Below, one piece after another: positions 17,094 to 42,034 of a DNA stretch of 64,000 nucleotides. This stretch comes from Nitrosopumilus sp. (GTDB lineage Archaea > Thermoproteota > Nitrososphaeria > Nitrososphaerales > Nitrosopumilaceae), in the NCBI GenBank assembly GCA_965207075.1, contig CBDBLO010000002.1, positions 2,112,001 through 2,176,000 of the forward strand, read 5' to 3'. The notes under the pieces were generated by a model. The model ran no database searches. It saw nothing but the letters and a program-made list of their open reading frames with translations, and was not told the DNA's origin. Made by a program: the position numbers and the translations under genes. Numbering within the stretch: position 1 is the stretch's first letter; every line of letters begins with the position of its first letter.

Positions 17094-17167
17094 GGGTCTA
17101 TGGCGCAGCCAGGTAGCGCTCAGGACTCTTAATCCTGCTGTCGTGGGTTCGAATCCCTCTAGACCCG
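17094..17167 (+). tRNA. tRNA-Lys(CTT)
   Basis: GGGTCTA/TAGACCC acceptor, CAGGA-CTCTTAA-TCCTG anticodon arm, GTTCGAATC T-loop, upstream TTATAA box. Confidence 0.95.
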
Positions 17168-17337
17168 CTACTATACCGGTACTCTTTTGGGCTCCGGTAA
17201 GTGGAAAGAATGATCACAGGTAGGAAGGAAAGGCCCGAAAGGCGAAAACCGGGGGAGGGGTGTCACGGCGGCGCGCAGGGGCGCGGGACTCGCCCTTCCA
17301 CAGGGGCTTTTATGGGATCGGGGGTGTGCGTCCGACC

Positions 17338-18939: not shown

Positions 18940-19032
18940 TGGAGACGGCGGCCGGGGGATTCGAACCCCCATGCGCTTGCGCGCGGCGATTCAGGAGATC
19001 GCTGCCAAACCGGGTATGGCGTAGCTGCCACC
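18940..19032 (-). tRNA. Atypical tRNA-like gene: CCT (Arg) anticodon with a long variable arm
   Basis: Reverse complement folds as D-arm GCCA/TGGC, anticodon arm GCGAT-CTCCTGA-ATCGC, V-arm GCGC-GCAA-GCGC, T-arm GGGGG-TTCGAAT-CCCCC, acceptor GGCAGCT/GGCCGCC, followed by GTCTCCA. Confidence 0.75.
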
Positions 19033-22823: not shown

Positions 22824-23939
22824 ATGAGCCGGACGCGGGGCGCCGCAGCGGCGGGAACGGACAACGAAAAGTACGTCAGGCGCGGCGCGGACCTGTTCAT
22901 AGAGTATGATCCAGGGTGGGAGGATGACGTGGGGCGCGCAAACGAGGGCAAGGTCGGCGCCCCGTACCGGTACGCGGAGACGCTCATCATGCTGGCCGCC
23001 GCCTTCAGGGGCGCGCTGGGGATCCGGTACAGACAGCTCGAGGGGATGGTCGGGAAGATGGTAGGCGGATCCAACACGCCCGCATACAGCCAGCTGTACA
23101 AGCGGATCAACAGGCTTGACGCGGACATCCGCCGGAACCCGGACGGGATGGTGACGGTGTCGGACAGGAAGGGGTCGCGGATGCTGGCGCTCGACGCAAG
23201 CGGGCTCAAGCAGCACAACAGGGGCGAGTGGATGAGGGCCAAGTGGAGGGTTAGGCGGGGCTTTGTAAAGATGCACGTGCTGGTCGACACGGAGACCATG
23301 AAGATACTCGCGCTGGAGGTCACGGACGATGCCGTGGGGGACTCGACCATGTTCGAGTCGCTGCTCGGACAGGTAGTGGACGCGGGCGGCGCGCGGCACA
23401 CGGAGCCGCCCGCCGCGCCACGTTCCGGCGGCGGCCCGAGATACGAAAACCTTCTCGCGTCCGGCATCCCCCCGCTCGCGTCATTCTTCCCGGGCGCCCC
23501 CCGGAACCGGGCCGCGCCCGACCTCCTGCTTGGCGACGCCGCGTACGGATCAAGGAAGAACGTGGCCGCGTGCGCGCGGGCAGGGGTGACCCCTGGCATT
23601 GCACACACCATCAACGTGACGGCGCGTGGCAGGGGATCCGGCGACGCGTGGGGCATATCCGTAAGGGACCAGATGGGCGGAAGCCCCGACGCGACGCGCC
23701 TGGACCTGATGGGCAGGGAGGAGAAGAGGGAGAACCAGGCGTACTGGAAGGCCCGCATAGGCTACGGCCACCGCTGGATCGCGGAGGCCGTGTTTTCGGT
23801 ATTCAAGCGCCTGTTCGGCGAGCACCTGATGGCCCTCAAGTGGGAGAACATCGTGCAGGAGATAAGGCTCAAGGTGATCCAGTACAACAAGTGGAGGGAT
23901 GAGTCGATAGCGCGCGAGGCGGGAGGCGGGACTTTCTGA
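22824..23939 (+). mobile_element. IS5-family DDE transposase
   Basis: NEKYVRRG, P.YSQLYKR, LALDASG, GEW, KMHVLVD, GDAAY, YGHRWIAEAVFS. Confidence 0.88.
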
Positions 23940-24042: not shown

Positions 24043-24190
24043 CCGGTAAAGCGTGTAAAGCGTGTAAAGCGCGCGTCCGGCCCACCGGTAAAGCGTGTAA
24101 AGCGCGCGTCCGGCCCACCGGTAAAGCGTGTAAAGCGCGCGTCCGGCCCACCGGTAAAGCGTGTAAAGCGCGCGTCCGGCCCACCGGTAA
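24043..24190. repeat. 33-bp tandem repeat, ~4 copies
   Basis: Unit CCGGTAAAGCGTGTAAAGCGCGCGTCCGGCCCA with no spacers; the first unit has an extra GTAAAGCGT. Confidence 0.93.
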
Positions 24191-24761
24191 AACACGGAAA
24201 GCGCGCGTACGATTTGGTGACACGCATGGAACGCCCCCTTTCGCATTAGTACTACACCTCAACGACAACCTGCGCTCTCCCACGCATGTCACACCCGAAG
24301 GGTGTCAAGCCGGCGCCCCTCCCCGCGGAGGTTGGAGTCTCACCAAACAAGCGCGCGTCTCTGCCCCCACTGGCGTCTCCAGACACCAAACCCATTGGGC
24401 GCGCGGTCTCTTACCAGCTCAATTGGCGCGATGGCTCCCTTCCGACTGTCGGCTCCTGAACGTCTCGGTGTCCGTCGCGCTCTAGGACGGCCGGGGAGTT
24501 CATTTCCTGTTTGGCCTCTCGTTCTCTCCATCCCTTAACCAATCACGGGCACAACAAAGCTTCAGAGATATAGTCCGGTCTGGCGTGTCCGATTCGATGG
24601 CCACTCTCAAGATCTCATCCGGGGCCAGCCCGCGCACTCCAGAGGTCCAAACCGTACGGTTCGCCGAGTCATGATGGAATCACAAGACGTTGGTTTGGTT
24701 GTTATGTACCTAGAGTAACGACAACTCTAATTCGGAAAACATCAGAGCCTATGGTGGAACG

Positions 24762-25388: not shown

Positions 25389-25931
25389 TCATTTTGTTTT
25401 TTCATACACGTCCATGAGCCTTCCTGCGTTCATCAAATAGCTCACGCTATACTTTGAGCAGCACAGCCTCGTTCTCTTAAAGTCTGAGCGCTGGCGTAAT
25501 CCCTCCATGTATTCTGGAGGTATCTTGTATGCGTCGGTGATTATAACGCCACCGATCTTTAGAAACTTGAGCGCATCCAGAAATATCTTCTTCGGGTTAC
25601 GATGAATGTTGTTGATGACATTGACACATATCACTACGTCTGTTTCTTCCACGTGATCGCTGACATCTGAAGCATCCTTGGGTATGAACTCGTCCAGATT
25701 TGACCCTGCTGCCTCGCTCGAATAGGGGTCAATCCCGACCGCATGCACCTCGACACCTTTTGAAGAGAGGCACTCCTTGCACCCTGTGAGGGCCGTTCCG
25801 TCCGAGCATCCGATGTCAACTATGACGAGTCTGTCGTTTGCATGCGCAAAATGTTGGTAGATGTAGTTTGGTATGCCCAGCTCGTCATACCGAGTCCTCC
25901 ATGTTGTCTTGAGTCTGAACAAGTCCATCAA
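25389..25931 (-). CDS. Class I SAM-dependent methyltransferase
   Basis: IVDIGCSDG motif I, GID, DVVIC, LKIGG; overlaps the hsdR stop. Confidence 0.8.
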   Translation of the reverse strand: MMDLFRLKTTWRTRYDELGIPNYIYQHFAHANDRLVIVDIGCSDGTALTGCKECLSSKGVEVHAVGIDPYSSEAAGSNLDEFIPKDASDVSDHVEETDVVICVNVINNIHRNPKKIFLDALKFLKIGGVIITDAYKIPPEYMEGLRQRSDFKRTRLCCSKYSVSYLMNAGRLMDVYEKTK

Positions 25932-28900
25932 CTCCCAGCCCAGTTCTTTGCTATGACTTCTGCTTGGCTCAGAACGGTATCAGTGGCCTTCTTGGCCTTG
26001 TCGGGCGGATATTCGTACCTCTTCAGGATCTTCTTGACTTCCAGTCGGATTGCAGCCTGAACGCTTGCCTTTTGCGTCCAGTCTATTGTGACGTTCCTTC
26101 TTATCATGTCAGTCAGCTCCTTTGCAATCGACGCGAGTACCGCATCTCCCATGATCCTTACCGCGCTGTCACTGACCCCAAGCGCGTCATAAAACGCAAG
26201 CTCGTCCTCATCCAAGTCTAGCGTTCTGCCCCTGCCTCTCTCTTCCCGGATCTGCCTTGCAATCTTGATAAGCTCGTCTATGACCTCGCTTGTGCTGATT
26301 CTCTTGTCATTGTATCTTCTGATGGTATCCTCCAGCAAGTCGCGGAAGGATCTCCCCTTGACTATGTTCCTCTTTGAGTATATCCTAATCTTCTCCTCAA
26401 GTATCCTCCTGAGCGCCTCGCGCGCAAGATTCTTCTCGGGAGATTTCCTGATGTTTGAGAGGAAGACTTCCGACAATATTGACACCTCCGTACCAGGACT
26501 TCCCGCGTTGCCGATTATGTCGATTATCTCATCGGACACGATGGCCTTTGAGATTATCTGCTTTATCCCAACATCAAACCTCTCGCGGTCGGCGCCGCTG
26601 TATCCGGTGGTCTTTGTGACTGCCGCCTTTATGGCCTCGAAGAACCCCATCTCCTCTTTGATTCTCATGGCCTCCTCCCTCGGAAGTGCTATGGAGAACG
26701 CGCCGCGCAACAGGGCAAACTCCTTCTGGAACCTCTCCTTTGTGCCCGGCTCCCTCAGTATGTGATCTACCGCGCGGGACATGAACGGCACTCGCTTTTC
26801 AGGCCTGAGGTTGAAAAATTCCATGTAGTCAAACCCGTGGAACATGCACTTGACGACATCGTATTTTTCAAGCATTGCAGACACTGCGTCATCCTGCACG
26901 TTGGTTTGCTTGCCGCGGCCGCCGCTCCTCGTGTAATTTGACATGGCATTCTTTATCTCCCTGCTCATGTCCATATAATCGACAATCAGGCCCCCCTCCT
27001 TGCCCGGGTATACCCTGTTCACCCTTGCTATTGCCTGCATCAGGGTGTGGCCGTCCATCCATTTGTCCAGATACATAGTGTGGAGCGAGGGGGCGTCAAA
27101 CCCGGTAAGGAACATATCCCGTACTATGATGATCTTGTGCGCGCCCTTGGGATCCTTGAACCTGTCGCCGATGGCCCTCCTTTTTTGTTTGCTTCGTATG
27201 TGCTCCTGCCACGGTTCTGGATCGGACGCAGAGCCGGTAAACACTACCTTGATCAACCCCTTGTCGTCGTCCTTGTGGTACCAGTCGCGGCGCTGCTCGA
27301 CGATCTCGTCGTGCAGCTCAACGCATATCCTTCTAGACATGCAGACAATCATTGCCTTGCCCTCCAAGACGGAGCTCCTCTCTTCGTAGTGTCTTATAAT
27401 GTCGCCGGCGATCTTCTTGATGCGGGCAGGTGCTCCTACCAACTTCTCCATGCGGGACCACTCTTTCATTATTTCCTCCCTTTCGTCAGTCTCGCTTCCT
27501 TCAGTCACCCTTGCAAAGTCTTCATCAATGCGCGGGCGCTCTGTGGATCTTATGTCAACGGGCACAAACTTGTTCTGATAGTAGATTCTGACTGTGGATC
27601 CGTCCTCCACTGCCTGTTGCACATCGTAGATGTCTACATAGTCGCCAAATACGGTGGGAGTGGAACGGTCTTTTTGCTCGATCGGCGTGCCGGTAAACCC
27701 GATGAAGGATGCGTTGGGCAGGGCGTCCCTCAGGTATTTGGCAAGACCGTATGCGACTTGCGGCGCGTCGTTTCTGTTGACTATCTTGGCCGCGAACCCG
27801 TAATGGCTTCGGTGCGCCTCGTCTGCAATAACCACTATGTTGTCTCTTTCTGACACGGCGTGATGCTGGTCGCGGTTCTCCGGTAGAAACTTTTGGATGG
27901 TAGTAAACACGATCCCACCAGATGCGACGCTTAGCAGATCTGATAGATCCCTTCGCGCCTCGGCCTGCACGGGCTTTTGCCGCAGTATGTCTTGGCATCT
28001 GCCGAACGTGCCGAACAGCTGGGCGTCAAGGTCGTTTCTATCTGTGAGCACTACTATGGTGGGGTTGTCCATACCGCGGATCAACTTTCCCGCATAAAAC
28101 ACCATGGTTAGTGACTTTCCGGATCCCTGTGTGTGCCAGACCACGCCTGCCTTTTTCGTGTCGCCCCGCGCACTGATCGTGGACTGCAAAGCTTTGTTGG
28201 CCGCCCAGTACTGGTGGTAGGCTGCCATCTTTTTTGTTGTTTTTTCACCCTTCTCAAACACGATAAAATTCCGTATGATGTCCAAGAGCCTACTCTTCTC
28301 AAACATTCCGCGTAGTAGAACCTCAGTCTGAGAAAGTCCTCCGCCAGGTCTTGCACCGTCAATGGTCTTCCACTCCATGAATCTCTCCATGCCAGATGAC
28401 ATGGTTCCGGCCCTTGCCTGCATGCCATCGCTTATTGTGAGAATCTCGACATACCTGAACAGATCCGGAATTTTTTTCATGTACGTCTGGAGCTGGTTGT
28501 ATGCAGACCAGATGTCCGCCTTTTCATCTGCCAGATTCTTCAGTTCGAAGACTACCAGCGGGATACCGTTTACAAACAGTATAACGTCGGGCCTGCGCTC
28601 GTCATCTCCCTTTATGGTGAACTGGTTGACTGCTAGAAAGTCGTTGCTACGGATTTTGTCGTCGTCAAACTCAAAGAGCCATGTCTTTTCGTACCGCTCA
28701 CCGGATTCCGTCTTGACTGGGACGTCCACCCCGTCAACCAGCATCTTGTGAAATGATTCGTTATCGGTAATCGGGTGCTGGGAAGAGCTCCGCAGTACCT
28801 GCCTTATCGCATCTTCTACTGCAGGCCCGGGAATACCCGGATTAATTCTCTGCAGTGCGCCTCTTAGTCTGTCCACCAGCACCACTGTCTTGTAATCCTC

Positions 28901-29032
28901 GCGCAGCGCGGAATGGCCACCGGGCAGATATTCTTCGTTTTTTCCGCGTATTATTTCATAACCAAGTTCTTGTAAGACAGACAGAACATATTCTTCCACA
29001 TCCGCTTCTGAAATTGGTTTTTTCATTGCCAT
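25928..29032 (-). CDS. hsdR: Type I restriction enzyme R subunit
   Basis: RPDVILFVNGIPLVVFELK, HTQGSGKS, DEAHR, FTGTP, LTGFDAP, QAIARVNR. Confidence 0.96.
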   Translation of the reverse strand: MAMKKPISEADVEEYVLSVLQELGYEIIRGKNEEYLPGGHSALREDYKTVVLVDRLRGALQRINPGIPGPAVEDAIRQVLRSSSQHPITDNESFHKMLVDGVDVPVKTESGERYEKTWLFEFDDDKIRSNDFLAVNQFTIKGDDERRPDVILFVNGIPLVVFELKNLADEKADIWSAYNQLQTYMKKIPDLFRYVEILTISDGMQARAGTMSSGMERFMEWKTIDGARPGGGLSQTEVLLRGMFEKSRLLDIIRNFIVFEKGEKTTKKMAAYHQYWAANKALQSTISARGDTKKAGVVWHTQGSGKSLTMVFYAGKLIRGMDNPTIVVLTDRNDLDAQLFGTFGRCQDILRQKPVQAEARRDLSDLLSVASGGIVFTTIQKFLPENRDQHHAVSERDNIVVIADEAHRSHYGFAAKIVNRNDAPQVAYGLAKYLRDALPNASFIGFTGTPIEQKDRSTPTVFGDYVDIYDVQQAVEDGSTVRIYYQNKFVPVDIRSTERPRIDEDFARVTEGSETDEREEIMKEWSRMEKLVGAPARIKKIAGDIIRHYEERSSVLEGKAMIVCMSRRICVELHDEIVEQRRDWYHKDDDKGLIKVVFTGSASDPEPWQEHIRSKQKRRAIGDRFKDPKGAHKIIIVRDMFLTGFDAPSLHTMYLDKWMDGHTLMQAIARVNRVYPGKEGGLIVDYMDMSREIKNAMSNYTRSGGRGKQTNVQDDAVSAMLEKYDVVKCMFHGFDYMEFFNLRPEKRVPFMSRAVDHILREPGTKERFQKEFALLRGAFSIALPREEAMRIKEEMGFFEAIKAAVTKTTGYSGADRERFDVGIKQIISKAIVSDEIIDIIGNAGSPGTEVSILSEVFLSNIRKSPEKNLAREALRRILEEKIRIYSKRNIVKGRSFRDLLEDTIRRYNDKRISTSEVIDELIKIARQIREERGRGRTLDLDEDELAFYDALGVSDSAVRIMGDAVLASIAKELTDMIRRNVTIDWTQKASVQAAIRLEVKKILKRYEYPPDKAKKATDTVLSQAEVIAKNWAGS

Positions 29033-30606
29033 GCCTCTGGTTGAATTCTAATTTTTCCTGACATCAGTTTCGATAACAAAAAATTTCGTTGTAACGTCAG
29101 CACATGTGACTCAAATGTGTTTCGTCGTATACGTTCGTCCCAAGTAGAGACATACGCTTCAAAGTGATTAACCAAGGTTCGAGGAGGTTCAACCATTGGC
29201 ATCATTTCGAGCTGGTTTTTAGTAATGGCCCCAAACACTGTTCCTATTTGGTCGTATTGTTTGAGATCCTGCTGCAAAGACCATGCCAGATAATAGGTAA
29301 AAGATCGTGAACCCGTTTTATGCCTAAGTGCTGCAACACCTCTGCCTATGCAGCACTTCTCCCAGGCCATGTTTATCGCCCCTACAGGGGCTCTAACGCT
29401 GACTAATGTATCGTCTGCATGAGCAATGCGAGTTGGTGCTGTGCAGTATTTTCTCTTTCTAGGATATCGCAGCCCAAAGTCCGTACTACCCTGAAAAAAT
29501 GGAAGGCCTTTGCATTCATCATTGTAAGTTTTACTTGGAGGCGATTGGCCCATGGTCAGATTGAGGCAATTTTTCACCACGTTTATTGTCCATACCTCAG
29601 GAATGTCACCCAGCTCCGAATCAGTCAATTGATCAGGGAATAAATCATAAAGATGACTAGGAAGGCCGGGCAAAGACTCTCCGGGTTGCCATCTCCCCTC
29701 CATCTTGGCACGGACAGGATCAAAGTCCACAAACCATGACTTGAACAATGCTCGCGCCATCACTTCAAGTGTTTCATTCATCTTGTGATTGAGATCTATT
29801 TTCGCATCTAATGTTCCTAGAATATGTGCAATGATTCGTTGTTTGTCCAAGGTGGGAATTGGCATGAGCCACTCTTTAAAAGATTTTGTTGTAATAGTTT
29901 GGAAGATAGTTCCATAAGTGAGGGATTCCATTTGTGATCGTGTACCTTTGAGCGCGTAGTAAAGATAGTCAGGAACTATACGTTCATTTGGAATAAGAGC
30001 ATAGCAAGTTTGATTGAAAGCCATTTCTTTGCCAAGTTGAGTTAATGCGCCAACAGTTCCACGTGAAGTAATAAGTATTGTATTCTTAGGCATGATCTTA
30101 GTAGAGCTTTTAGATACACCCATCTCAGTAATAGATTCTTGAGATTTGTACAAATACCTCGAGTTATTTTTAGCTATATCTTTTGCAGTTACCCATTGAA
30201 TATTTCCGTGCCAGTAGTCGGGCACACTACGACTTGGTGTGCCACCAATAATTGCGGTAGCGACTTCAGAAACAGGCATTTTGCTCCAATGTGTATTATT
30301 CGTTTCCACAGGAATTTTTTGCGCGTCTATGATTTTTTTAAATTTACTGTTGACAGCTTTAAGATCCACAACATCTACCGTGTAAGGAAGATCCGAATCA
30401 TCAAACTCAATACTTAGGTTTGTCATAGTATCGTGATCAATAGGTTGATCGCCCTCCACGGCAAGATCCAAATCAGAACCATCGTGTGTTGTCCATTTTG
30501 CCCTGCTTCCAAACACCCAAACACGGACATTGGATAGAAGATACTTGCGTAGTATGTTACATACTATCTCCAACTGACTTGGACTAATATCAACTGGACT
30601 AGTCAA
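29023..30606 (-). CDS. hsdS: Type I specificity subunit HsdS with an N-terminal fused minimal nucleotidyltransferase (MNT) domain
   Basis: First ~100 aa: VFGSRAKWTTHDGSDLDLAV...LPYTVDVVD; then TRD1 (GGTPSRS, SRGTVG), conserved spacer LFKSWFVDFDPV, TRD2 (GQSP, VRAPVG). Confidence 0.92.
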   Translation of the reverse strand: MTSPVDISPSQLEIVCNILRKYLLSNVRVWVFGSRAKWTTHDGSDLDLAVEGDQPIDHDTMTNLSIEFDDSDLPYTVDVVDLKAVNSKFKKIIDAQKIPVETNNTHWSKMPVSEVATAIIGGTPSRSVPDYWHGNIQWVTAKDIAKNNSRYLYKSQESITEMGVSKSSTKIMPKNTILITSRGTVGALTQLGKEMAFNQTCYALIPNERIVPDYLYYALKGTRSQMESLTYGTIFQTITTKSFKEWLMPIPTLDKQRIIAHILGTLDAKIDLNHKMNETLEVMARALFKSWFVDFDPVRAKMEGRWQPGESLPGLPSHLYDLFPDQLTDSELGDIPEVWTINVVKNCLNLTMGQSPPSKTYNDECKGLPFFQGSTDFGLRYPRKRKYCTAPTRIAHADDTLVSVRAPVGAINMAWEKCCIGRGVAALRHKTGSRSFTYYLAWSLQQDLKQYDQIGTVFGAITKNQLEMMPMVEPPRTLVNHFEAYVSTWDERIRRNTFESHVLTLQRNFLLSKLMSGKIRIQPEAWQ

Positions 30607-30615
30607 GTGATCTAT

Positions 30616-31197
30616 TCAACTCCTAGAAGTTTTATGCAAGTTTTTTGTAGATATATCAGCTTTGGAGCTTTTAGTTTTTTTAAGCTCAGCATTAAGATCG
30701 CGCAATCTGGATTCCAATTTGGTGATCTCGGATTCAATATCGTTCTTTGTTGGTCTCTTAGATATCGGAGATGGGACAGCGTGGCCATCCTGCAAACTAG
30801 ATAATACGTATTGCGCTTCGTGTAGAAATTCAGATGCAGCTTCAAAAACATATTGTGCTTTTTCTTCATCGTATGTGTGACTAGTAATTCCACGATTTTT
30901 TCGATACTGATCCCAAACAGAAACGTCTGATCGAATAAGATCCTTTTTGTATGCTTCACGAATAATGTCTTTGAAATTCATAGATGCAACTTCTGCAGGG
31001 TTAAACAATGCCATTCCCAAATGTCGCTTGATCATTTTAAGAGTTATTTCATACGTGAATTCAAAGGATTGTATAACGGCACTACGCATGTGTTTTTTGT
31101 GCTTTGGGCTTTTTTGAATTGTTTCATCATAATATGTATCGAGCGCGTCTGCAAGCTGAGCAATCGCTTTTTCCAGTGATGTAAGGTCAAGATTCAT
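30616..31197 (-). CDS. HEPN-domain protein (HI0074/nucleotidyltransferase substrate-binding family) with coiled-coil tail
   Basis: VIQSFEFTYE and RGITSHTYDE (Rx4HxY). Confidence 0.9.
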   Translation of the reverse strand: MNLDLTSLEKAIAQLADALDTYYDETIQKSPKHKKHMRSAVIQSFEFTYEITLKMIKRHLGMALFNPAEVASMNFKDIIREAYKKDLIRSDVSVWDQYRKNRGITSHTYDEEKAQYVFEAASEFLHEAQYVLSSLQDGHAVPSPISKRPTKNDIESEITKLESRLRDLNAELKKTKSSKADISTKNLHKTSRS

Positions 31198-31201
31198 GTA
31201 T

Positions 31202-32764
31202 TCACACCTTTTTCACATTAAATCCAAGGCTCTTTATGTTTTTGGTAATTGATGCATCCAGTTTCTTGGATTTCGATTGCAGCTCATTCCATTGCAATAC
31301 TAGCTGGCCCATTCTTTCTTCAAACGGTTCTTCGTCATCCAACTGCGAGCTTACACCTACGTAGCGTCCCGGAGTAAGAACATACCCATGCTTATGAATC
31401 TCATCCAACATGACACTCTTGCAAAATCCGACTACGTCCTTGTACCTGGATCTTTTATTGCGCCAAGAATGATATGTGTCGGCAATCTCTGCAATATCCT
31501 CGTTCGTCAGCTCCCTGTGCCGCCTATCCCTCATCGTACCCATGTTGCGGGCATCAATGAACAATACCTGCTTCTGACGGTTTCTGAACCGGTGGTTCTT
31601 TTTGTCTCTAGTTACAAACCACAGGCAGGCGGGAATCTGAGTGTTGTAGAACAGCTGGGAGGGCAGTGCGACCATGCAGTCCACCAGATCCTGCTCCACT
31701 ATATTTTTGCGTATTTCGCCCTCACCGCTCGTGTTAGAGGACATCGAGCCGTTGGACATTACGAATCCGGCCGTTCCGGTAGGTGATAAATGATGGATAA
31801 AGTGCTGAATCCATGCAAAGTTTGCGTTGCCAGCAGGTGGTATGCCATACACCCATCTGACATCATCCTGTAACAGGTGACCGTCCCAGTCACTGTCGTT
31901 GAACGGAGGATTGGCAAGTATGAAATCCGCCCTCAGATCCTTGTGCGCGTCGTTTACAAAGCTGCCCTGTCCATTCCACTTGATCATGTTGGATTCTATC
32001 CCGCGAATGGCTAGGTTCATCCTACACAGACGCCAAGTGGTGGAGTTGCTCTCCTGTCCATAAATTGAGATGTTGCCGATTCGGCCACCGTGTGCTTTGA
32101 TGAATTTTTCACTCTGCACGAACATGCCGCCCGAACCGCAGCAGGGGTCGAATATTCTGCCCTTGTATGGTTCCAAAACCTCTACCAGCAGTCTGACAAT
32201 ACTTCCCGGCGTATAGAATTGGCCACCCTTTTTGCCCTCTGCATCTGCAAACTGGCCCAAAAAATACTCATATACGCGCCCTAATACGTCCTTGCTCTTG
32301 CTCTCCCTGTCTCCCAGTCCGATGGTTCCTATCAAATCTATCAATTCCCCGAGCCTCTGCTTGTTGAGACTGGGACGGGCATAGTCCTTTTGCAGGACTC
32401 CACGCAATGACACATTCTCTCTTTCTATGGATGCCATCGCGTTGTCAATCATCTCTCCAACCTCCGGTTTCTTGGCATTGTCAGCCAGATATCTCCATCG
32501 TGCCCTTTTGGGTACCCAGAAGATCCTCCTAGAGGTGTACTCGTCACGGTCCTCGGGATCAGAGTCCTGCGCTTTTCCCAGTAATTCGTGTATTTCTACG
32601 AATGCATCAGATATGTACTTTAGAAAGATCAGCCCTAGCACAACATGCTTGTATTCTGCCGCGTCCATGTTGCTTCGGAGCTTGTCGGCAGCCTTCCACA
32701 TCTTCTCCTCAAAACCGAGATTTGCACCGTTGGGGGTTCTTTCTTTGGATTTTACTCGTGCCAT
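31202..32764 (-). CDS. hsdM: Type I R-M methyltransferase subunit (m6A)
   Basis: [29 protein letters not shown]. Confidence 0.96.
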
Positions 32765-33468
32765 CTCATGCTTCCCTTCATGCCAAAGTCCTATCATCAG
32801 CATATTAAGCATATGCGTACGGGTCGGCAAAGTCGCTTAGCTCGTCTACCATGCAAGTGGCTGACAGCCGCAAAAATTGCCGTAAGCTGCGTTGCTCTCT
32901 GCCAAGAAAGGCTGTTTCGAGTGTTGTCTGTGTGGATACGTTCTGTAGATTTGCCCTATTTGGTGGCCTCCACGCCTAGAATGCAGGGATGCAATGACCG
33001 CGCGCCTGGTAGTCTGTCAAGTCTAAGGCGGCACAGTATCTTCCCTGCGCACATTTTTTCACTCTCCTCTGGCCGTGCCCAGCTCATAAATTGGAAGCAG
33101 AACCATGGAGCAGGATCAAGCGTGCAATTGCATGTCTGTTATTCAAGGGCAGGTTAGAGCATATGAAGAATTCCATACAGTAGCTACTGGACAGGGATGA
33201 GGTGGCCATCGTAAGCTGCCTGACTACATACTTGCTACTATTGCGGTATAGACGGCCGCCGGAATGCGTGGTGCTCGGAGAGCGCAAATGCCGACGTGGC
33301 AAGCCATCTTGTCTTGATCTCCAGATGTGCCATTCCAAGTCGGTTGGCCCCTTCTCCAGCCGCGAATGTCGTGACATACAGCTCAGGAATTGGAACACAA
33401 AGGTGGATGTTGGACAATGGTAGCATTACTGCATAAAATGCTTTGAGCTTTTTTCAAATTACTATACG

Positions 33469-34389
33469 TCAACAACTGTTCTCGTGCATTCTTTCTAAGT
33501 ATTCATTTATTTTTCTATTCAGTGATGCCAAAAACACAGAAATCTTCGGAAGATCCTCGTGTAGTTTCCGGCCTTGCATTACATACATGCGAAATCTCTT
33601 GTTACGAGTTGAATCAGATGAATTATTGAGTTTATCAAGATACATGTTAAACGTATCTAACGTGTGCAAAACATTAGCAATACTTAGTGTGGGCGACGTA
33701 TCTGTCACATCTCCCAACATGTTATTTTCCTTCAGAAATGGTTCACATTTGATGACACTTGCTCTGAACAGCGCTAGCTCTATTTGTGGAGCACAGTATG
33801 TAGCATCAAGCATGATTATTTTAAATTCAGAAAGTAAATAATCTAATACTTCCTTTACCACGTCTATGTTTGTCTTGAGGTTTTTTAGATCGTGTACATG
33901 CTGATCCGTATTAGAAAACAGACGTAGTATGGTACTTCTAGGAGCAGGAGTAGTGGACGCGCCTATCCGGACGTAACATGTGCCTTTCTCTTTTAGAAAG
34001 TATGGCTTGTCCAATTTCTGATCTCTTATGTGAATTACTACGAAGAAGCGTTGTCGTGTATCGTCTATTATTTTAGTTTCGATCTTGGGTATTGGTTCGA
34101 CCTGCACTCGTTGATTCCGTATGTCGTTTTTCACTTTATCTTCTTCACCTGCCCGGAATCCATTCTTACTAAATTCAATTAGATGTTGATCTTTCTTTTT
34201 CTCGTCAATTCCAAGCACGATAAAACCTCCTTGTGTATTGGCCATAGCGCAAAGATGTTTAGATAGATCATTAAGTGTACAGCGTCCTTTGAAGTCAAAC
34301 TCCGCCGACTCTACATCGCGCACTTTTAAGAGTTTGTCAATGTCATCTAGCGTCCAGATACCAACGGCACGAGGAAACAGATTATTCAT
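33469..34389 (-). CDS. Schlafen (AlbA_2) domain protein
   Basis: ESAEFDFKG, CAMANTQGGFIVLGIDE, KPY, YVRIG; start could be further upstream (34578). Confidence 0.85.
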   Translation of the reverse strand: MNNLFPRAVGIWTLDDIDKLLKVRDVESAEFDFKGRCTLNDLSKHLCAMANTQGGFIVLGIDEKKKDQHLIEFSKNGFRAGEEDKVKNDIRNQRVQVEPIPKIETKIIDDTRQRFFVVIHIRDQKLDKPYFLKEKGTCYVRIGASTTPAPRSTILRLFSNTDQHVHDLKNLKTNIDVVKEVLDYLLSEFKIIMLDATYCAPQIELALFRASVIKCEPFLKENNMLGDVTDTSPTLSIANVLHTLDTFNMYLDKLNNSSDSTRNKRFRMYVMQGRKLHEDLPKISVFLASLNRKINEYLERMHENSC

Positions 34390-34705
34390 GTAGAAGTACA
34401 TTAACCACGGGTTTAAAACGTTCACATCAGTAGGCTGTGCGCCCTCGAGTCGATTGATATCTTGTACATAAAGGCCTGAGATCCAAGTCATTCTAGGAAT
34501 AAATTTTTTAACAACCTGTGTGAAGTACAAACTCAAGTCGAGTTTATGCCCAAGTTCATGTAACAACAACTCGGCCACTGTATCGTTACTTGGTACCGAG
34601 AGACGCGGCGGGGTGTGCAGTCGTCGTAGAAGTTCGCCTATCGTCTGCGTATTGCCGCGTCTCCTATAGTGTCAAGTATAGGGATCTCGTGAGTGGAGGG
34701 GAACC

Positions 34706-38460: not shown

Positions 38461-39554
38461 TAGTGACGATCAAAAGTTTTTGCGGGGTAGGGATGTTCTA
38501 TTGATGAATTTCATTGCATCGAGTTTGGGGCGCGCCGTCCTAAAATACTCTGACAAGGCACGGCGCATATGCACCACCGTCGAGTAATATTCGCTGACCA
38601 GCAGATCACGCTTTGACTGGTGCCAGTACTCCTCGACCACGCTGAGTTCCGGCGTCGCCTTGGGAAGCCATATGATCCTCGCGTTTGGCTCCCCCTCCAG
38701 GTATTCCCGTACGATTCTGGCCTTGTGCTGCGGCGCATTGTCCATGATTACCGCGGTCCTGCCAAAGTGGCCGACCAGCGCCTTCAGGTACTTCAGGAAC
38801 GTCTCCTTGTCGAATCCCTTGTACGTCCTGACAAACTGCCTGCCGTCCGTCGTGAGCGCGCCGTACGCCACTACCCTGTCGTGGCTTCCATTGTATGCGG
38901 TTATGACGGGGACGCCCCTCGGCGACCAGTATTTCACGCCGCTTCCCGGGTCGTTGATGAATATGGACTCGTCAACGACCGCGGTGACAAATCCCCGCGA
39001 TTTCAGGTACGCGATCCGCCTTTTTGTGTCCCGCTGCCACTCCCTGATCTCCTCCATCTCCGCCCGGTTGACGTGCACCGCCTGGGACGTCTTGGCCGAC
39101 ATGCCGAGCCTGTGCATTATCTTCCTGACGTTTGTTATGTGGTACTCCACCCCGTGCCTTTCGCGTATGGCATTCTTGAGCACCCTTGGCGTCGTGATGC
39201 CGCCTCCTCCCGCAACGATCTTCCTGATCCTCTTCATCGCCACCTTTGGAGGCCTGCCCGAACGGGGCCTGTCCTTCAGGCCTGCAAGGCCGTCCTTGTC
39301 AAAGCGCCGAACCCAGCTGGAGACGGTGCGCGCGTCGCAGTAGCACAGCGAGGCGACCTCGGATGCCTTCAATCCGTTGATCTTGACCATGCAGACTGCG
39401 TGGATCCTATTTCCTATGAGGTGGTCTTTTTCTGCCTTGTAGGCCCGAATGAGCAGGTCCCTGTCTTTCTCATCCATGCCGGGCGATGTATTCGGTGATC
39501 AAAAAAGGTTGCGCACACAGTTCTGACAGCCGCGAAGACTTTTGCGTCACACTA
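38461..39554 (-). mobile_element. IS630-family element (transposase 38470-39477)
   Basis: HTH with RSGRPPK, DES, MDNAPQH, PELSVVE; imperfect TIRs TAGTGACGATCAAAAGT / ACTTTTGCGTCACACTA flanked by TA. Confidence 0.92.
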
Positions 39555-39949
39555 TAAGTTCATAAGTCTTCCCAAAAAACCTTACGAGTGTTGCTTCTGT
39601 CATTGTCACATGATGACTCGGTTTAGGCGCAAGTATCTCATACAAGAAGTCTTCCACCATGTCTTAGATACACGTCATGTTTTTAGACACAAACTATAAT
39701 CACCTAAATGCACATGTCTGTAGTGAACGGATCGGGTCTCAGAGATATCCGGTTGTAGTGTCATCACTAGATAATGTAGAAGAACCACGGATCAGGATCT
39801 TAATAAGGTGGGTGCCATACTATAATCAAGAATTTGGAATCAATATCGCACAAAATGATTCCCGAGCGAGCATACATGATCTCGCGCAGATTTTTGGACA
39901 AGGCCTCTCCAACGACAGTCTTAATTGATGCAACGACATGTGGCATGTA

Positions 39950-42034
39950 TTGAAGATTAAAGAGGTGAGGCTTAGAAATTTTCTCTCGTTTGGCAACAAA
40001 CAGACCAAGATCAGATTGTCCGGACTCACCACGATCGTAGGACCTAACAGCGCGGGCAAGACCAGTCTACTCAGAGCTATAGAAGCAGTTGGCAACTGCA
40101 TGATCCGGCCCCAAACCCTTCCAAAGGCATACCATCACAATGGAAACATTAGACAACCAATCGAGATCGAGATAGACGTAGAGTTCAACGACAACGAGAA
40201 AGAACTCATATCAGATTTTCTAACGTGTTCGTTTATAGCCCACTTTGGACCAAACAATATGCAAGCGGATCTCGCGAGACAAACTACCGAATGGATACTG
40301 CAAAGCAATATCGGAAAGCGCTTCGGGAATCTATGTGGCACGATGACGGCGATCCTACGTATCGAGCATAGATCATTGCCACCAGATGTATATCTACGGA
40401 TCGGCAAGGATAACGACAGCCTGTTTATACTGGATGGCAATGCAACAAAGGCGATAAATGCGGACATACGGACACACTACCATGTTGCCCAACCAATCTT
40501 CAACATGGCCGCGCCCCACATTACTGGCCTAGATGATACTACATTTTACAATAACGCGTATCCATCCGACTTGTACGAAGCTGCGGGAGATCCACTGGAT
40601 GCAATGATTGGATGTGACAATGATGTCCTTTTCTACCTTGGTCAATTTTCGACTGATCATTTTGAAAGGATGGCGGAAATTCCACGAGAGTTTGCACGAA
40701 TACGGGATTTTGTTAGGAATGAGCAAATAAATACGATAAACTTCAATACAATGATTGCACATCTGTTCTCAAAATCCATAGTAAAAATGTCAGGAGTGCC
40801 AACACAGATCAGAGATGTGCCAATCTCAGAAGACGTGCAGAATATGCCCATTGAAAATGTCACAGGCCATAACCTATCCAGAATTCTATTCAGAATGAAT
40901 AACAAGGACGATCCCGCCATAATATCTCGGTACAATGAGATCATCTCAAAGATGAAAGAGATGACGGGACTAGATGTCCGAATCCAGATAAGCGCCAGAG
41001 ATGCACAAAACCAAGAGGAGCAGCAGCCAGATTACAATATATCCGTCAACTTCATGAGGGACGAGATGCTGATTCCGGCCGAGCTTGTGGCTAGCGGTGA
41101 CATCGAATTGCTAATTTTTTTGACCACGTTGATCGGGCAGAAGAACAGAATATTGCTCCTGGATGAACCTGCATCTAGTCTGCATCCAGACAGACAGAAG
41201 GCAATACAGACGCTCATGCATAAAATAGCAGAAGAAGGACGCAATCAGATCATCATAATCACGCATTCACCATTCCTGACGGATCCGTATGGACGAGAAC
41301 CGCTGCTGAGATTCTTTGCAAATGAAACCGGGACAAAGGTGGTGGACGTAGAACAGATATTGTCCGAAAACGAAAAAGCCGGGACAACAATGCAGAATGT
41401 TGATGTCCGCTCAATGATGTTCCAGATGGGAGTGATCATAGTAGAAGGATTATCAGATAAAATGGTGATTGAGTCTACAGACAAGATCATGACAGAAATG
41501 GGAGATGGTCCCGACATTGAAGGCAACGAATGGGCAGTACTGGAAGGGGGCGGAAAGTATGAGGCTTGTTGGCTGTCATATTTAGCAAAAGAGATGGGTA
41601 TCCCGTATATTGTCATAGTGGATCGTGATGCTCTTATGAGATGCGAGAAGAAGATAAGTATGGAAGACAAAAAAGTACTTGCCTCGCCTGTCGTGCGGCA
41701 CATCTACAATACATACGGATTCTCAGATAAAGAGCAAAGGGCTATGATAAGCGTGCGGCCTCTAGTAGCTAGAGAACGCTGGAAAGAGTATGATCCAGAT
41801 GACTTTGATGATCTGCGCGATATTGCGCGATCCCACGACATACACGTGCTGAATGGCGATCTGGAGGAGATTATTGGAATAAAAAAGCGCGGGCGCGGCA
41901 AGCCCGTATTTGCGCTGAGACAGATCGACCAAATGTGTGCAAAAGGCCAAATTCCAGAGGGATTGAGGGACTTGATGAACATGATTGGCAGAATAGTCAA
42001 GGAAAACGGGAGGGGCGTGGCTTGGGTGCCTTGA
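39950..42034 (+). CDS. OLD-family ABC-ATPase/TOPRIM nuclease
   Basis: GPNSAGKT, LLLDEP, ITHS, VIIVEGLSD, IVDRD. Confidence 0.88.
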   Translation: MKIKEVRLRNFLSFGNKQTKIRLSGLTTIVGPNSAGKTSLLRAIEAVGNCMIRPQTLPKAYHHNGNIRQPIEIEIDVEFNDNEKELISDFLTCSFIAHFGPNNMQADLARQTTEWILQSNIGKRFGNLCGTMTAILRIEHRSLPPDVYLRIGKDNDSLFILDGNATKAINADIRTHYHVAQPIFNMAAPHITGLDDTTFYNNAYPSDLYEAAGDPLDAMIGCDNDVLFYLGQFSTDHFERMAEIPREFARIRDFVRNEQINTINFNTMIAHLFSKSIVKMSGVPTQIRDVPISEDVQNMPIENVTGHNLSRILFRMNNKDDPAIISRYNEIISKMKEMTGLDVRIQISARDAQNQEEQQPDYNISVNFMRDEMLIPAELVASGDIELLIFLTTLIGQKNRILLLDEPASSLHPDRQKAIQTLMHKIAEEGRNQIIIITHSPFLTDPYGREPLLRFFANETGTKVVDVEQILSENEKAGTTMQNVDVRSMMFQMGVIIVEGLSDKMVIESTDKIMTEMGDGPDIEGNEWAVLEGGGKYEACWLSYLAKEMGIPYIVIVDRDALMRCEKKISMEDKKVLASPVVRHIYNTYGFSDKEQRAMISVRPLVARERWKEYDPDDFDDLRDIARSHDIHVLNGDLEEIIGIKKRGRGKPVFALRQIDQMCAKGQIPEGLRDLMNMIGRIVKENGRGVAWVP

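Follow-up and report, generated by a model that had tools for sequence, protein, structure and literature searches.

What would a toxin gene do inside a restriction-modification (R-M) operon if the enzyme predicted to neutralize it is fused to the subunit that recognizes DNA? This question is raised by four genes on the minus strand of the window, the 64,000-nucleotide stretch of Nitrosopumilus DNA that we analyzed. They are, in order, hsdM, the methyltransferase subunit (31202..32830; 542 amino acids from a TTG at 32830, with an in-frame ATG 22 codons downstream, at 32764, as an alternative start), a HEPN gene of 193 amino acids (31197..30616), an MNT-hsdS fusion of 527 amino acids that starts with TTG and has no internal stop (30606..29023), and hsdR, the restriction/translocase subunit (25928..29032; 1,034 amino acids). 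In the sequence, hsdM and the HEPN gene are separated by 4 bp, the HEPN gene and MNT-hsdS by 9 bp, and MNT-hsdS and hsdR overlap by 10 bp, with the start of hsdR lying over the stop of hsdS. The gene order and the tiny gaps or overlaps given in the initial annotation are thus borne out by the open reading frames and their domains. HsdM combines an N6-adenine methyltransferase domain with the HsdM N-terminal domain (PF02384, 2e-112; PF12161, 3.6e-26) and matches the PADLOC model MTase_I at 1e-222. In HsdR, a nuclease domain at the N terminus is followed by an SF2 motor and by a C-terminal domain (PF04313, PF18766, PF11867), and the protein scores 601.7 bits against TIGR00348 (cutoff, 284.55; 1.9e-180). 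By gene content, the locus is a type I R-M operon for which restriction and methylation are predicted activities.

The fusion carries the only hsdS found in the genome. Its HsdS part (amino acids 111 to 527 plus the stop codon; 29023..30276, minus strand) comprises TRD1, a central helix, TRD2, and a C-terminal helix. It matches PF01420 (1.8e-31) and, over both halves, S subunits in the PDB (1yf2, 4.5e-48; 5ybb and 3okg, 8e-35), and the structural model contains two TRDs separated by two long conserved helices (253 to 293 and 476 to 516). The MNT (minimal nucleotidyltransferase) domain occupies amino acids 1 to 100 (30307..30606, minus strand) and is of the HI0073 type. It was recognized by PF18765 over amino acids 28 to 98 (7e-12; 45.8 bits against a cutoff of 26.9) and by PF01909, its best PDB match is HI0073 itself (1no5, 5.5e-13), followed by the MNT of Legionella pneumophila, and it is modeled as folded (pLDDT, 84 to 93). 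The catalytic motif GSx10DxD is intact as G33-S34-x10-D45-L-D47. Between the two parts lies a linker (amino acids 101 to 110; 30277..30306, minus strand) where pLDDT dips to 67 and whose length differs by roughly 10 to 45 residues among homologs.

The HEPN core (amino acids 1 to 137; 30787..31197, minus strand) belongs to the HI0074 family. The protein exceeds the curated cutoffs of both TIGR01987 (84.5 versus 55.8 bits) and PF08780 (103.2 versus 31.8 bits; 1.3e-29), and its best PDB matches are HI0074 (1jog, 1.6e-22) and then the L. pneumophila HEPN toxin (8xdj and 8xem, 9e-8). AlphaFold2 models the core as helical from residue 6 to 140 with pLDDT of 85 to 98. The stretch RGITSHTY forms R102-G-I-T-S-H107-T-Y109, an RX4HXY motif with the acceptor tyrosine present. 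With the HEPN above its family cutoff and an adjacent MNT bearing GSx10DxD, the two belong to the HI0073/HI0074 type of HEPN-MNT pair. In 40 fused homologs, G33, S34, R35, S44, D45, L46, and D47 are invariant while TRD1 is hypervariable, and 26 of the 30 cassette HEPNs that we aligned retain Rx4HxY. We count this conservation as selection on catalysis, the activity itself being a prediction.

The arrangement is common. An MNT domain was present in 85 of the 120 nearest HsdS homologs. Of the 150 cluster representatives nearest to the MNT domain in a set of 1.84 billion proteins, 98 included an HsdS part, 25 were free proteins of 140 amino acids or fewer, and 148 had the motif GSx9-11DxD. We then compared 80 loci in GTDB, the best of 584 by likeness to the HsdS of the window and hence a nonrandom set in which related genomes are not independent. 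Profile searches found the fusion in 28 of these 80 loci, with a HEPN reading frame directly upstream that abutted or overlapped the start of the fusion in 28 of 28 cases, and found a plain HsdS accompanied by neither HEPN nor MNT in 46. A first pass with single sequences had already paired HEPN with the fusion in 25 of 25 loci. Three further loci (L010, L020, and L041) carry versions of the cassette with a free MNT, and the order of toxin first and MNT second is shared by the 28 fused and the 3 split loci. The domain search proposed in the initial annotation therefore shows a widespread fusion with a constant neighbor and, as judged from these sequences, one that is conserved across many bacterial and archaeal lineages. 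We found no description of an MNT-HsdS fusion with HEPN in the literature that we searched.

Related systems are known, and each differs from the cassette. In type VII HepT/MntA pairs, a HEPN with RX4HXY likewise stands beside an MNT with GSx10DxD, and the PDB entries that best match the two domains of the window are HI0074, HI0073, and the Legionella pair. However, the type VII antitoxin is a free protein of about 100 amino acids, usually encoded ahead of its toxin, whereas here it is the N-terminal domain of HsdS and the toxin comes first, so that the locus departs from the layout of a small free antitoxin gene followed by a small free toxin gene. It also lies within an R-M operon, and its MNT domain scores 38.7 bits against the NCBIfam MntA equivalog NF047752, below the cutoff of 60. 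PrrC resembles the cassette as a HEPN-fold RNase whose gene is embedded in a type I R-M operon, and it is the source of the idea that R-M can silence such a toxin. As the initial annotation stated, PrrC is reported to be kept inactive by the type Ic enzyme EcoprrI (PMC3710099). Yet PrrC is an ABC-ATPase-HEPN protein silenced by noncovalent association, while the HEPN of the window, with PF08780 as its one Pfam match in 193 amino acids, has no ABC-type NTPase domain of the PrrC/RloC kind, and what connects it to the complex is an enzyme domain that S carries as a fusion. A covalently joined MNT antitoxin is also found in FhepTA, where the linker is reported to be critical for AMPylation (PMC13000451), but there the MNT has its own toxin as fusion partner; here, the toxin is separate and the partner is an unrelated DNA-recognition subunit. 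The words "restriction" and "HsdS" do not occur in the main text of the FhepTA paper.

Defense genes that sit within other systems, type I R-M among them, have been collected by "guilt by embedding" (bioRxiv 10.1101/2024.01.29.577857). Among the PADLOC candidates are PDC-M05 (a nucleotidyltransferase with a HEPN; PMC12988326) and PDC-S09. Like our locus, they have a nucleotidyltransferase paired with a HEPN inside an immune operon, but they are free genes, in contrast to an MNT fused to HsdS. Against the 2023 version of the PADLOC library, the MNT domain matched PDC-S09 models at 2e-10 and PDC-M05A weakly, at 1.3e-3, and the HEPN matched no family, so that the two proteins do not both match the PDC-M05 models.

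How did the operon reach this genome? G+C content is 0.37 to 0.45 across positions ~29000 to 31400 versus 0.50 to 0.55 in hsdM and hsdR, which agrees with the earlier description of the HEPN and MNT-hsdS cassette as more AT rich than its neighbors. Across 25 loci, HEPN and MNT similarity to the window correlated with each other (Spearman's ρ = 0.63) and not with HsdM similarity (ρ = −0.07 and −0.09) or with that of HsdR, and the 11 loci with the closest HsdM (64 to 79%) all had a plain HsdS and lacked both HEPN and MNT. The low G+C and these similarity patterns would fit exchange of the HEPN and MNT-hsdS unit between M/R backbones. To that extent, the proposal in the initial annotation that the cassette was swapped in as a unit stands, but foreignness is not limited to the cassette. 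The HEPN was found in none of 24 genomes of the same genus, where the best HsdM match was only 40% identical. By these comparisons, the whole operon is foreign to this genus. It is flanked by transposases and sits in a defense island with Schlafen-like and OLD-like genes.

We consider it reasonably probable (about 0.6) that an archaeal genome has here acquired a type I R-M operon by horizontal transfer, that the operon houses a HEPN/MNT toxin-antitoxin pair resembling type VII, and that the antitoxin, an AMPylating enzyme, is tethered to the M2S core. MNT enzymes are reported to move an NMP onto the tyrosine of RX4HXY (PMC11586414; PMC7641770), as the initial annotation held for AMP, and for the L. 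pneumophila HEPN toxin and its MNT, RNA cleavage is reported, with the motif tyrosine as the NMP acceptor (PMC11586414). By analogy with such relatives, the HEPN would be a metal-independent RNase toxin acting through Rx4H, and the S-borne MNT would neutralize it by transferring AMP to Tyr109. Each M2S methyltransferase core would therefore contain one copy of the antidote as a built-in part, and the HEPN would be kept silent only for as long as an intact hsdS product is being made. At the least, the cassette should stabilize the operon, since a lost or truncated 5′ part of MNT-hsdS would leave a toxin and no antidote. It may double as a second-line abortive-infection arm once the R-M complex is disabled. 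Several features count against this reading. The modification would be covalent, which leaves unexplained how toxin that is already modified could be released when the complex is lost or blocked. The HEPN precedes the MNT, the MNT misses the MntA cutoff, and the HEPN has no PADLOC match. In addition, Rx4H is lost in 4 of the 30 aligned HEPNs (L003, L010, L033, and L043), and RNase activity is therefore not always kept. Three other loci (L046, L066, and L072) have a further free or HEPN-fused MNT upstream, which would be odd if the S-borne MNT suffices as antitoxin.

Any guard or addiction mechanism here would be a wholly inferred one. It is possible, if on the unlikely side, that the pair is nothing but a selfish stabilizer of a mobile R-M operon, with a neutral or mildly useful fusion that arose by loss of a stop codon and with no phage sensing. 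Neighboring genes overlap by 4 to 10 bp at most loci, such that a fusion requires just that loss, and in a weak domain tree (~95 residues, midpoint rooted, with supports not read), free MNTs are scattered among fused ones. An operon foreign to its genus, bounded by transposases, and a cassette that moves between M/R backbones also suit such an element. However, the fused form dominates the MNT subfamily, making up at least 98 of the 150 nearest representatives, compared with 25 that are free, and it persists across fused proteins whose MNT identity is ~30 to 80%, which suggests that it is maintained beyond mere tolerance.

A stronger version of our main reading, in which the cassette acts as a PrrC-like guard, is doubtful. 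Here, viral anti-restriction factors or damage to the complex would keep freshly made HEPN from being AMPylated, and the infection would be aborted by the RNase. The EcoprrI precedent points this way, as do a published proposal that R-M-linked HEPN proteins are freed when the R-M system is neutralized (PMC3710099), the strict coupling of HEPN to an S-borne MNT, the defense-island setting, and a preprint report that E. coli B carrying PDC-M05 was protected from one or more phages (10.1101/2024.09.26.614923). Against it, the sequence contains no sensor, the flexible MNT linker of variable length offers no evident route by which an allosteric signal could travel from the DNA-binding groove, the cassette also exists with a free MNT, and no type VII pair has a known trigger. 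In its broadest form, this scenario would mean that MNT-HsdS proteins mark a large group of bacterial and archaeal type I R-M systems that has gone unnoticed, one whose M2S core carries the HEPN antidote. Removal, blocking, or degradation of S by viral anti-restriction, proteolysis, or operon loss would leave new HEPN un-AMPylated and free to cleave RNA, a covalent-modification guard that arose in evolution independently of PrrC; we hold this equally tentatively. Since the host is an archaeon, Ocr and ArdA, suggested earlier as challenges, would be surrogate-host tools and not natural triggers.

It is quite improbable that the pair is no toxin-antitoxin system but a two-subunit nucleotidyltransferase that HsdS brings to DNA, with DNA, an Hsd subunit, or a viral molecule as its target. 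The family names NTase_sub_bind and [quoted passage not shown] echo this older view, and the additional MNT copies and the four HEPNs lacking Rx4H would suit it. On the other hand, the RNase motif and acceptor tyrosine persist in the other 26, and characterized relatives are reported to be RNase toxins neutralized by NMPylation (PMC7641770; PMC11586414). Finally, an assembly or sequencing error that joined two genes has a negligible chance, with the same fusion recurring in the HsdS homologs and GTDB loci described above and with identical Logan contigs from all four runs of two studies, one of which may be the source of the window. These contigs matched 28900 to 31300 with no other letters and no gaps, and in runs X1 and X2, single contigs spanned the entire interval. 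No stop or frameshift separates MNT from HsdS in the contigs of any of the four runs. The fusion is not an error, and the uninterrupted 527-amino-acid frame with its intact GSx10DxD, as first described, is confirmed by the sequence and these contigs.

Fusion proteins of this kind are currently labeled plain "restriction endonuclease subunit S," and the PADLOC Specificity_I model PDLC03138 absorbs the fused MNT (positions 2 to 91 of 485; 1.4e-19). As a result, annotation overlooks the toxin-antitoxin genes that such operons contain. PrrC is the only toxin nested in an R-M operon whose wiring to the immune complex is understood in detail. An antidote enzyme fused to S in ~100 or more sequence clusters turns an association into a defined two-gene cassette, whose layout may couple the restriction enzyme to a suicide switch and which offers clear sites for point mutants (D45/D47, R102/H107, and Y109).

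The HEPN of the window also has a C-terminal tail (amino acids 138 to 193 plus the stop codon; 30616..30786, minus strand). The initial annotation took it for a coiled coil that might dock on the complex. The tail is real, but AlphaFold2 models it as a disordered stretch (141 to 148) and a single helix (151 to 180) with a basic end, and a coiled coil is at most a conjecture. A general docking device is excluded because the tail is absent from all 29 HEPN genes aligned from 29 GTDB loci. Among the homologs aligned, the sequences place it in a small, close clade, where it is conserved in 14 of 19 proteins drawn from ~17 tail-length matches among the 120 matches listed.

In the Nitrosopumilus sp. 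genome, four minus-strand genes of a type I restriction-modification (R-M) operon lie head to tail. The first, hsdM (32830..31202), encodes N6_Mtase and HsdM_N domains (Pfam/NCBIfam) and is separated by a 4-bp spacer from the gene for a 193-aa HEPN protein (31197..30616), a putative RNase toxin of the NTase_sub_bind/HI0074 family that exceeds both curated cut-offs (Pfam, NCBIfam). After a 9-bp spacer comes a 527-aa ORF (30606..29023) that joins a Polbeta/NTP_transf_2 nucleotidyltransferase (MNT) domain (aa 18-98) to Methylase_S from aa 106. This MNT-hsdS gene overlaps by 10 bp with hsdR (29032..25928), which encodes nuclease, SWI2/SNF2, and C-terminal domains. The HEPN motif reads R102-GITS-H107-T-Y109, and the MNT motif reads G33-S34-x10-D45-L-D47. 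The gene order, intact motifs, single 527-aa ORF, and short gaps or overlaps claimed in the initial annotation are all borne out by the sequence and by Pfam/NCBIfam. The same is true of the claim that the cassette, meaning HEPN plus MNT-hsdS, is poorer in G+C than its neighbors (0.37-0.45 across about 29000-31400 versus 0.50-0.55 in hsdM and hsdR). A possible fifth gene starts 4 bp before the hsdR stop. This 180-aa ORF (25389-25931, minus strand) encodes class I SAM-methyltransferase domains (Methyltransf_12/23/11, E of about 1e-7) and has no PADLOC match.

An apparent fusion could conceal a stop or frameshift between MNT and HsdS, and none was present in contigs from four of four public sequencing runs, which represent two studies and one of which may be the window's own source. 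These independently assembled contigs had no substitutions and no indels relative to positions 28900-31300, and in two runs a single contig spanned the whole stretch. No RNA data set carrying the sequence was among the runs listed. In an alignment of 40 fusions, the ORF start (MTSPVDISP...) lined up with the N termini of homologs. An AlphaFold2 model built from a 40-sequence alignment had a mean pLDDT of 89.5. In it the MNT domain is folded over aa 9-100, confidence drops to 67 across aa 101-110, and beyond this linker comes a canonical HsdS with two target recognition domains (TRDs) and two long helices. By sequence, the closest solved relative of the MNT domain is HI0073 (1no5, 5.5e-13), while the remainder of the protein matches the solved S subunits 1yf2, 5ybb, 3okg, and 7bst.

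Codon 109 of the fusion (30280-30282) is an in-frame ATG preceded by GGAG with a 4-nt spacer. It sits exactly where unfused HsdS proteins start and might yield an MNT-less isoform. We rejected a general internal start of this kind because just 4 of the 40 fusions in the alignment have the codon-109 Met. The host is, in addition, an archaeon. Contigs from two runs (X3 and X5) break and resume in a 30-base overlap at 29714-29743, which codes for the conserved center of HsdS (about aa 288-298), with a jump in contig depth there (549 to 709 and 215 to 300). This break may reflect a coexisting variant with a different TRD2. Phase-variable hsdS shuffling was rejected since the assembled genome contains a single hsdS-like sequence.

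To gauge how widespread the fusion is, we considered the best 120 HsdS homologs from a collection of 5.8 billion proteins. An MNT N terminus was present on 85 of them. The other 35 were ordinary S subunits of 380-540 aa, intermixed with fusions in the ranking, and wherever the 120 were named, it was only as "restriction endonuclease subunit S." With the 105-aa MNT domain as the sole query, 1.84 billion cluster representatives yielded 3403 matches at E<=0.001, of which 694 reached E<=1e-10. Among the best 150, an HsdS-like part occurred in 98, including 86 of the 86 that were >=400 aa long; 25 were free proteins of <=140 aa, and in the other 27 (141-399 aa), which may be truncated, no HsdS part was detected. 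With 98 of the 150 closest matches attached to HsdS versus 25 free, this MNT subfamily is mainly an HsdS appendage. The PADLOC "Specificity_I" model PDLC03138 covers the MNT domain with its positions 2-91, so fusions already sit unnoticed among catalogued S subunits. The cassette is conserved and widespread, and in it a putative type VII-like antitoxin has become a domain of the type I specificity subunit.

The fusion is closely coupled to HEPN. We scanned GTDB, using one genome per species, and kept the best 80 loci of 584 relatives. These loci were chosen by likeness to the window's HsdS and kin genomes are not independent, so the locus counts are descriptive only. With single-sequence queries, MNT and HsdS shared one ORF at 25 of the best 80 loci, and a HEPN ORF lay directly upstream in all 25. 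Profiles built from these first matches raised the number of fused loci to 28 of 80, with HEPN upstream in 28 of 28. At three further loci (L010, L020, and L041), HEPN, a free MNT, and HsdS were separate genes in unchanged order. Free MNT without HEPN occurred at 3 of the 80 loci and plain HsdS with neither partner at 46. The commonest order among the best 80 was hsdM, HEPN, MNT-hsdS, at times other genes, and hsdR. Hosts in the scan included Chloroflexota, Rhodothermales, Latescibacterota, Poribacteria, Acidobacteriota, Acidimicrobiia, Nitrospinaceae, Pseudomonadales, and Akkermansiaceae, along with other lineages. Across the 40 aligned fusions, G33, S34, R35, S44, D45, L46, and D47 were invariant, TRD1 was hypervariable, and the linker varied in length. 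Of 30 cassette HEPNs, 26 retained the Rx4HxY motif, while those of L003, L010, L033, and L043 had lost it. Three loci carry extra copies ahead of the cassette, namely, a second HEPN-MNT pair (L046, 5782-6572), a free MNT (L066, 6878-7318), and an MNT-HEPN fusion protein (L072, 6926-7726).

Consistent with the earlier claim that the cassette was swapped in as a unit, similarity to the window covaried between HEPN and MNT (Spearman 0.63, n = 25) and between HsdM and HsdR (0.48, n = 56). HEPN and MNT did not follow HsdM (-0.07 and -0.09) or HsdR (0.02). Among the best 80 of 584, the 11 loci nearest in HsdM (64-79% identity) all lacked the cassette, including the very nearest, a Thaumarchaeota MAG with 79% identity in both HsdM and HsdR. 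Loci nearest in HEPN and MNT (52-56%) had an HsdM identity of only 59%. Together with the dip in G+C, these patterns support the view that HEPN and MNT-hsdS move together from one M/R backbone to another. Free MNTs were dispersed among fused ones in a quick MNT-domain tree, itself weak, a pattern that hints at repeated fusion or fission of MNT and HsdS.

The initial annotation had also described an extra coiled-coil tail on HEPN. The tail is present. In the AlphaFold2 model, aa 138-193 begin with disorder, form a single helix at 151-180 (pLDDT about 82-86), and finish in a basic segment that is again disordered. Homologs of 172-195 aa made up about 17 of 120 among the matches listed, and the tail occurred in 14 of 19 aligned HEPN proteins, a close clade, and was absent from HEPNs at 29 of 29 GTDB loci aligned. 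It is a lineage-specific addition outside the general design, and docking on the complex, which the initial annotation considered for it, would not be a general feature.

With the architecture and its conservation established, the question is what the cassette would do. A type I M2S complex holds a single S subunit, so the antidote would exist only within the methyltransferase core. The closest characterized relative is the HEPN-MNT module of L. pneumophila (8xdj/8xem, about 1e-7). Its HEPN reportedly cleaves RNA and has a conserved RX4HXY motif whose tyrosine accepts NMP from the cognate MNT (PMC11586414), and MntA/HepT of Shewanella is reported to present the same picture of RNase and NMP acceptor (PMC7641770). 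The background claim that MNT modifies the HEPN motif tyrosine therefore holds, as does the one that PrrC is kept inactive by the type I enzyme EcoprrI (PMC3710099). By analogy with these HEPN-MNT relatives, AMPylation of Tyr109 by the S-borne MNT, which would silence a HEPN RNase, is the likeliest reading. Several points weigh against so simple a story. The order of HEPN then MNT is inverted relative to ordinary HEPN/MNT dyads as described in PMC3710099, the score on the MntA model falls below its cut-off, additional MNT copies occur at L046, L066, and L072, and the HEPN motif is degenerate at four loci. Moreover, covalent silencing leaves the puzzle of how the toxin gets freed. A modeled complex of the MNT domain (aa 1-110) with HEPN, run with no controls, gave ipSAE values of 0.01 and 0.00 versus a mark of 0.32 and speaks neither for nor against binding. 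Under Tyr109 AMPylation, the cassette may serve addiction, PrrC-like abortive infection, or both. The guard put forward in the initial annotation, in which viral anti-restriction or loss of hsdS would release the RNase, is a speculative form of the abortive-infection reading.

Parts of this picture have precedents. Papers from 2012-2013 tied HEPN genes to R-M operons and drew the PrrC analogy (PMC3506569, PMC3632139, PMC3710099). In PMC3710099, Table 1 has MNT-associated HEPN families clustering with R-M operons and HEPN-M occasionally fused to "nucleic acid methylase domains," the text has R-M-associated HEPN fused to nucleases, helicases, and ATPases, not methylases, and Fig. 5 carries an "RM_TRD" label. 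PDC-M05, a PADLOC candidate, is the catalogue entry for nucleotidyltransferase and HEPN pairs nested in immune operons (PMC12988326), and one such candidate reportedly protected E. coli B (10.1101/2024.09.26.614923). Full-text searches, which covered main text, turned up no paper that describes an MNT-HsdS fusion, although a figure or supplement may depict one. The terms "HsdS," "specificity subunit," and "S subunit" had no occurrences in PMC3710099, whose Additional file 1 might depict the fusion; PMC2701414 and PMC12839542 did not mention it; "restriction" and "HsdS" were absent from the FhepTA paper (PMC13000451), as was "restriction" from PMC11586414; and "MNT" and "nucleotidyltransferase" were absent from an embedding preprint whose tables might depict the fusion (10.1101/2024.01.29.577857).

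The host genome (2.23 Mb, two contigs, 95% complete) scored best with archaeal SSU and LSU rRNA models and contained a single PF08780 HEPN, a single hsdS, and nine matches to Polbeta-type MNTs. Searches of 24 same-genus and 16 same-order genomes recovered no HEPN (0/24 and 0/16) and no close HsdM, the best match being 40% identical. From this distribution, the whole R-M operon is evidently an acquisition. Two DDE transposase genes, DDE_Tnp_1 (22824-23939, plus strand) and DDE_3 with HTH domains (38470-39477, minus strand), flank a roughly 15-kb stretch containing the operon and its neighbors. A 33-nt tandem repeat (24055-24208; 4.7 copies, 96% match) adjoins a transposase gene. Just upstream of hsdM, in an AT-rich stretch (G+C about 0.38), lies a gene for a 369-aa Schlafen/AlbA_2 protein (33469-34578, minus strand; PF04326, 1.6e-16; no PADLOC match). 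The same island encodes a defense-type, 698-aa OLD-family protein with an AAA_15/AAA_21 ATPase and an OLD-like TOPRIM domain (39938-42034, plus strand). The sole tRNA called by both ARAGORN and Rfam was a tRNA-Lys at 17094-17168. ARAGORN also called an 87-nt tRNA-Arg(CCT) (18944-19030, minus strand) that fell below the gathering score of the Rfam tRNA model and may be a false positive or else an archaeal tRNA with an intron.
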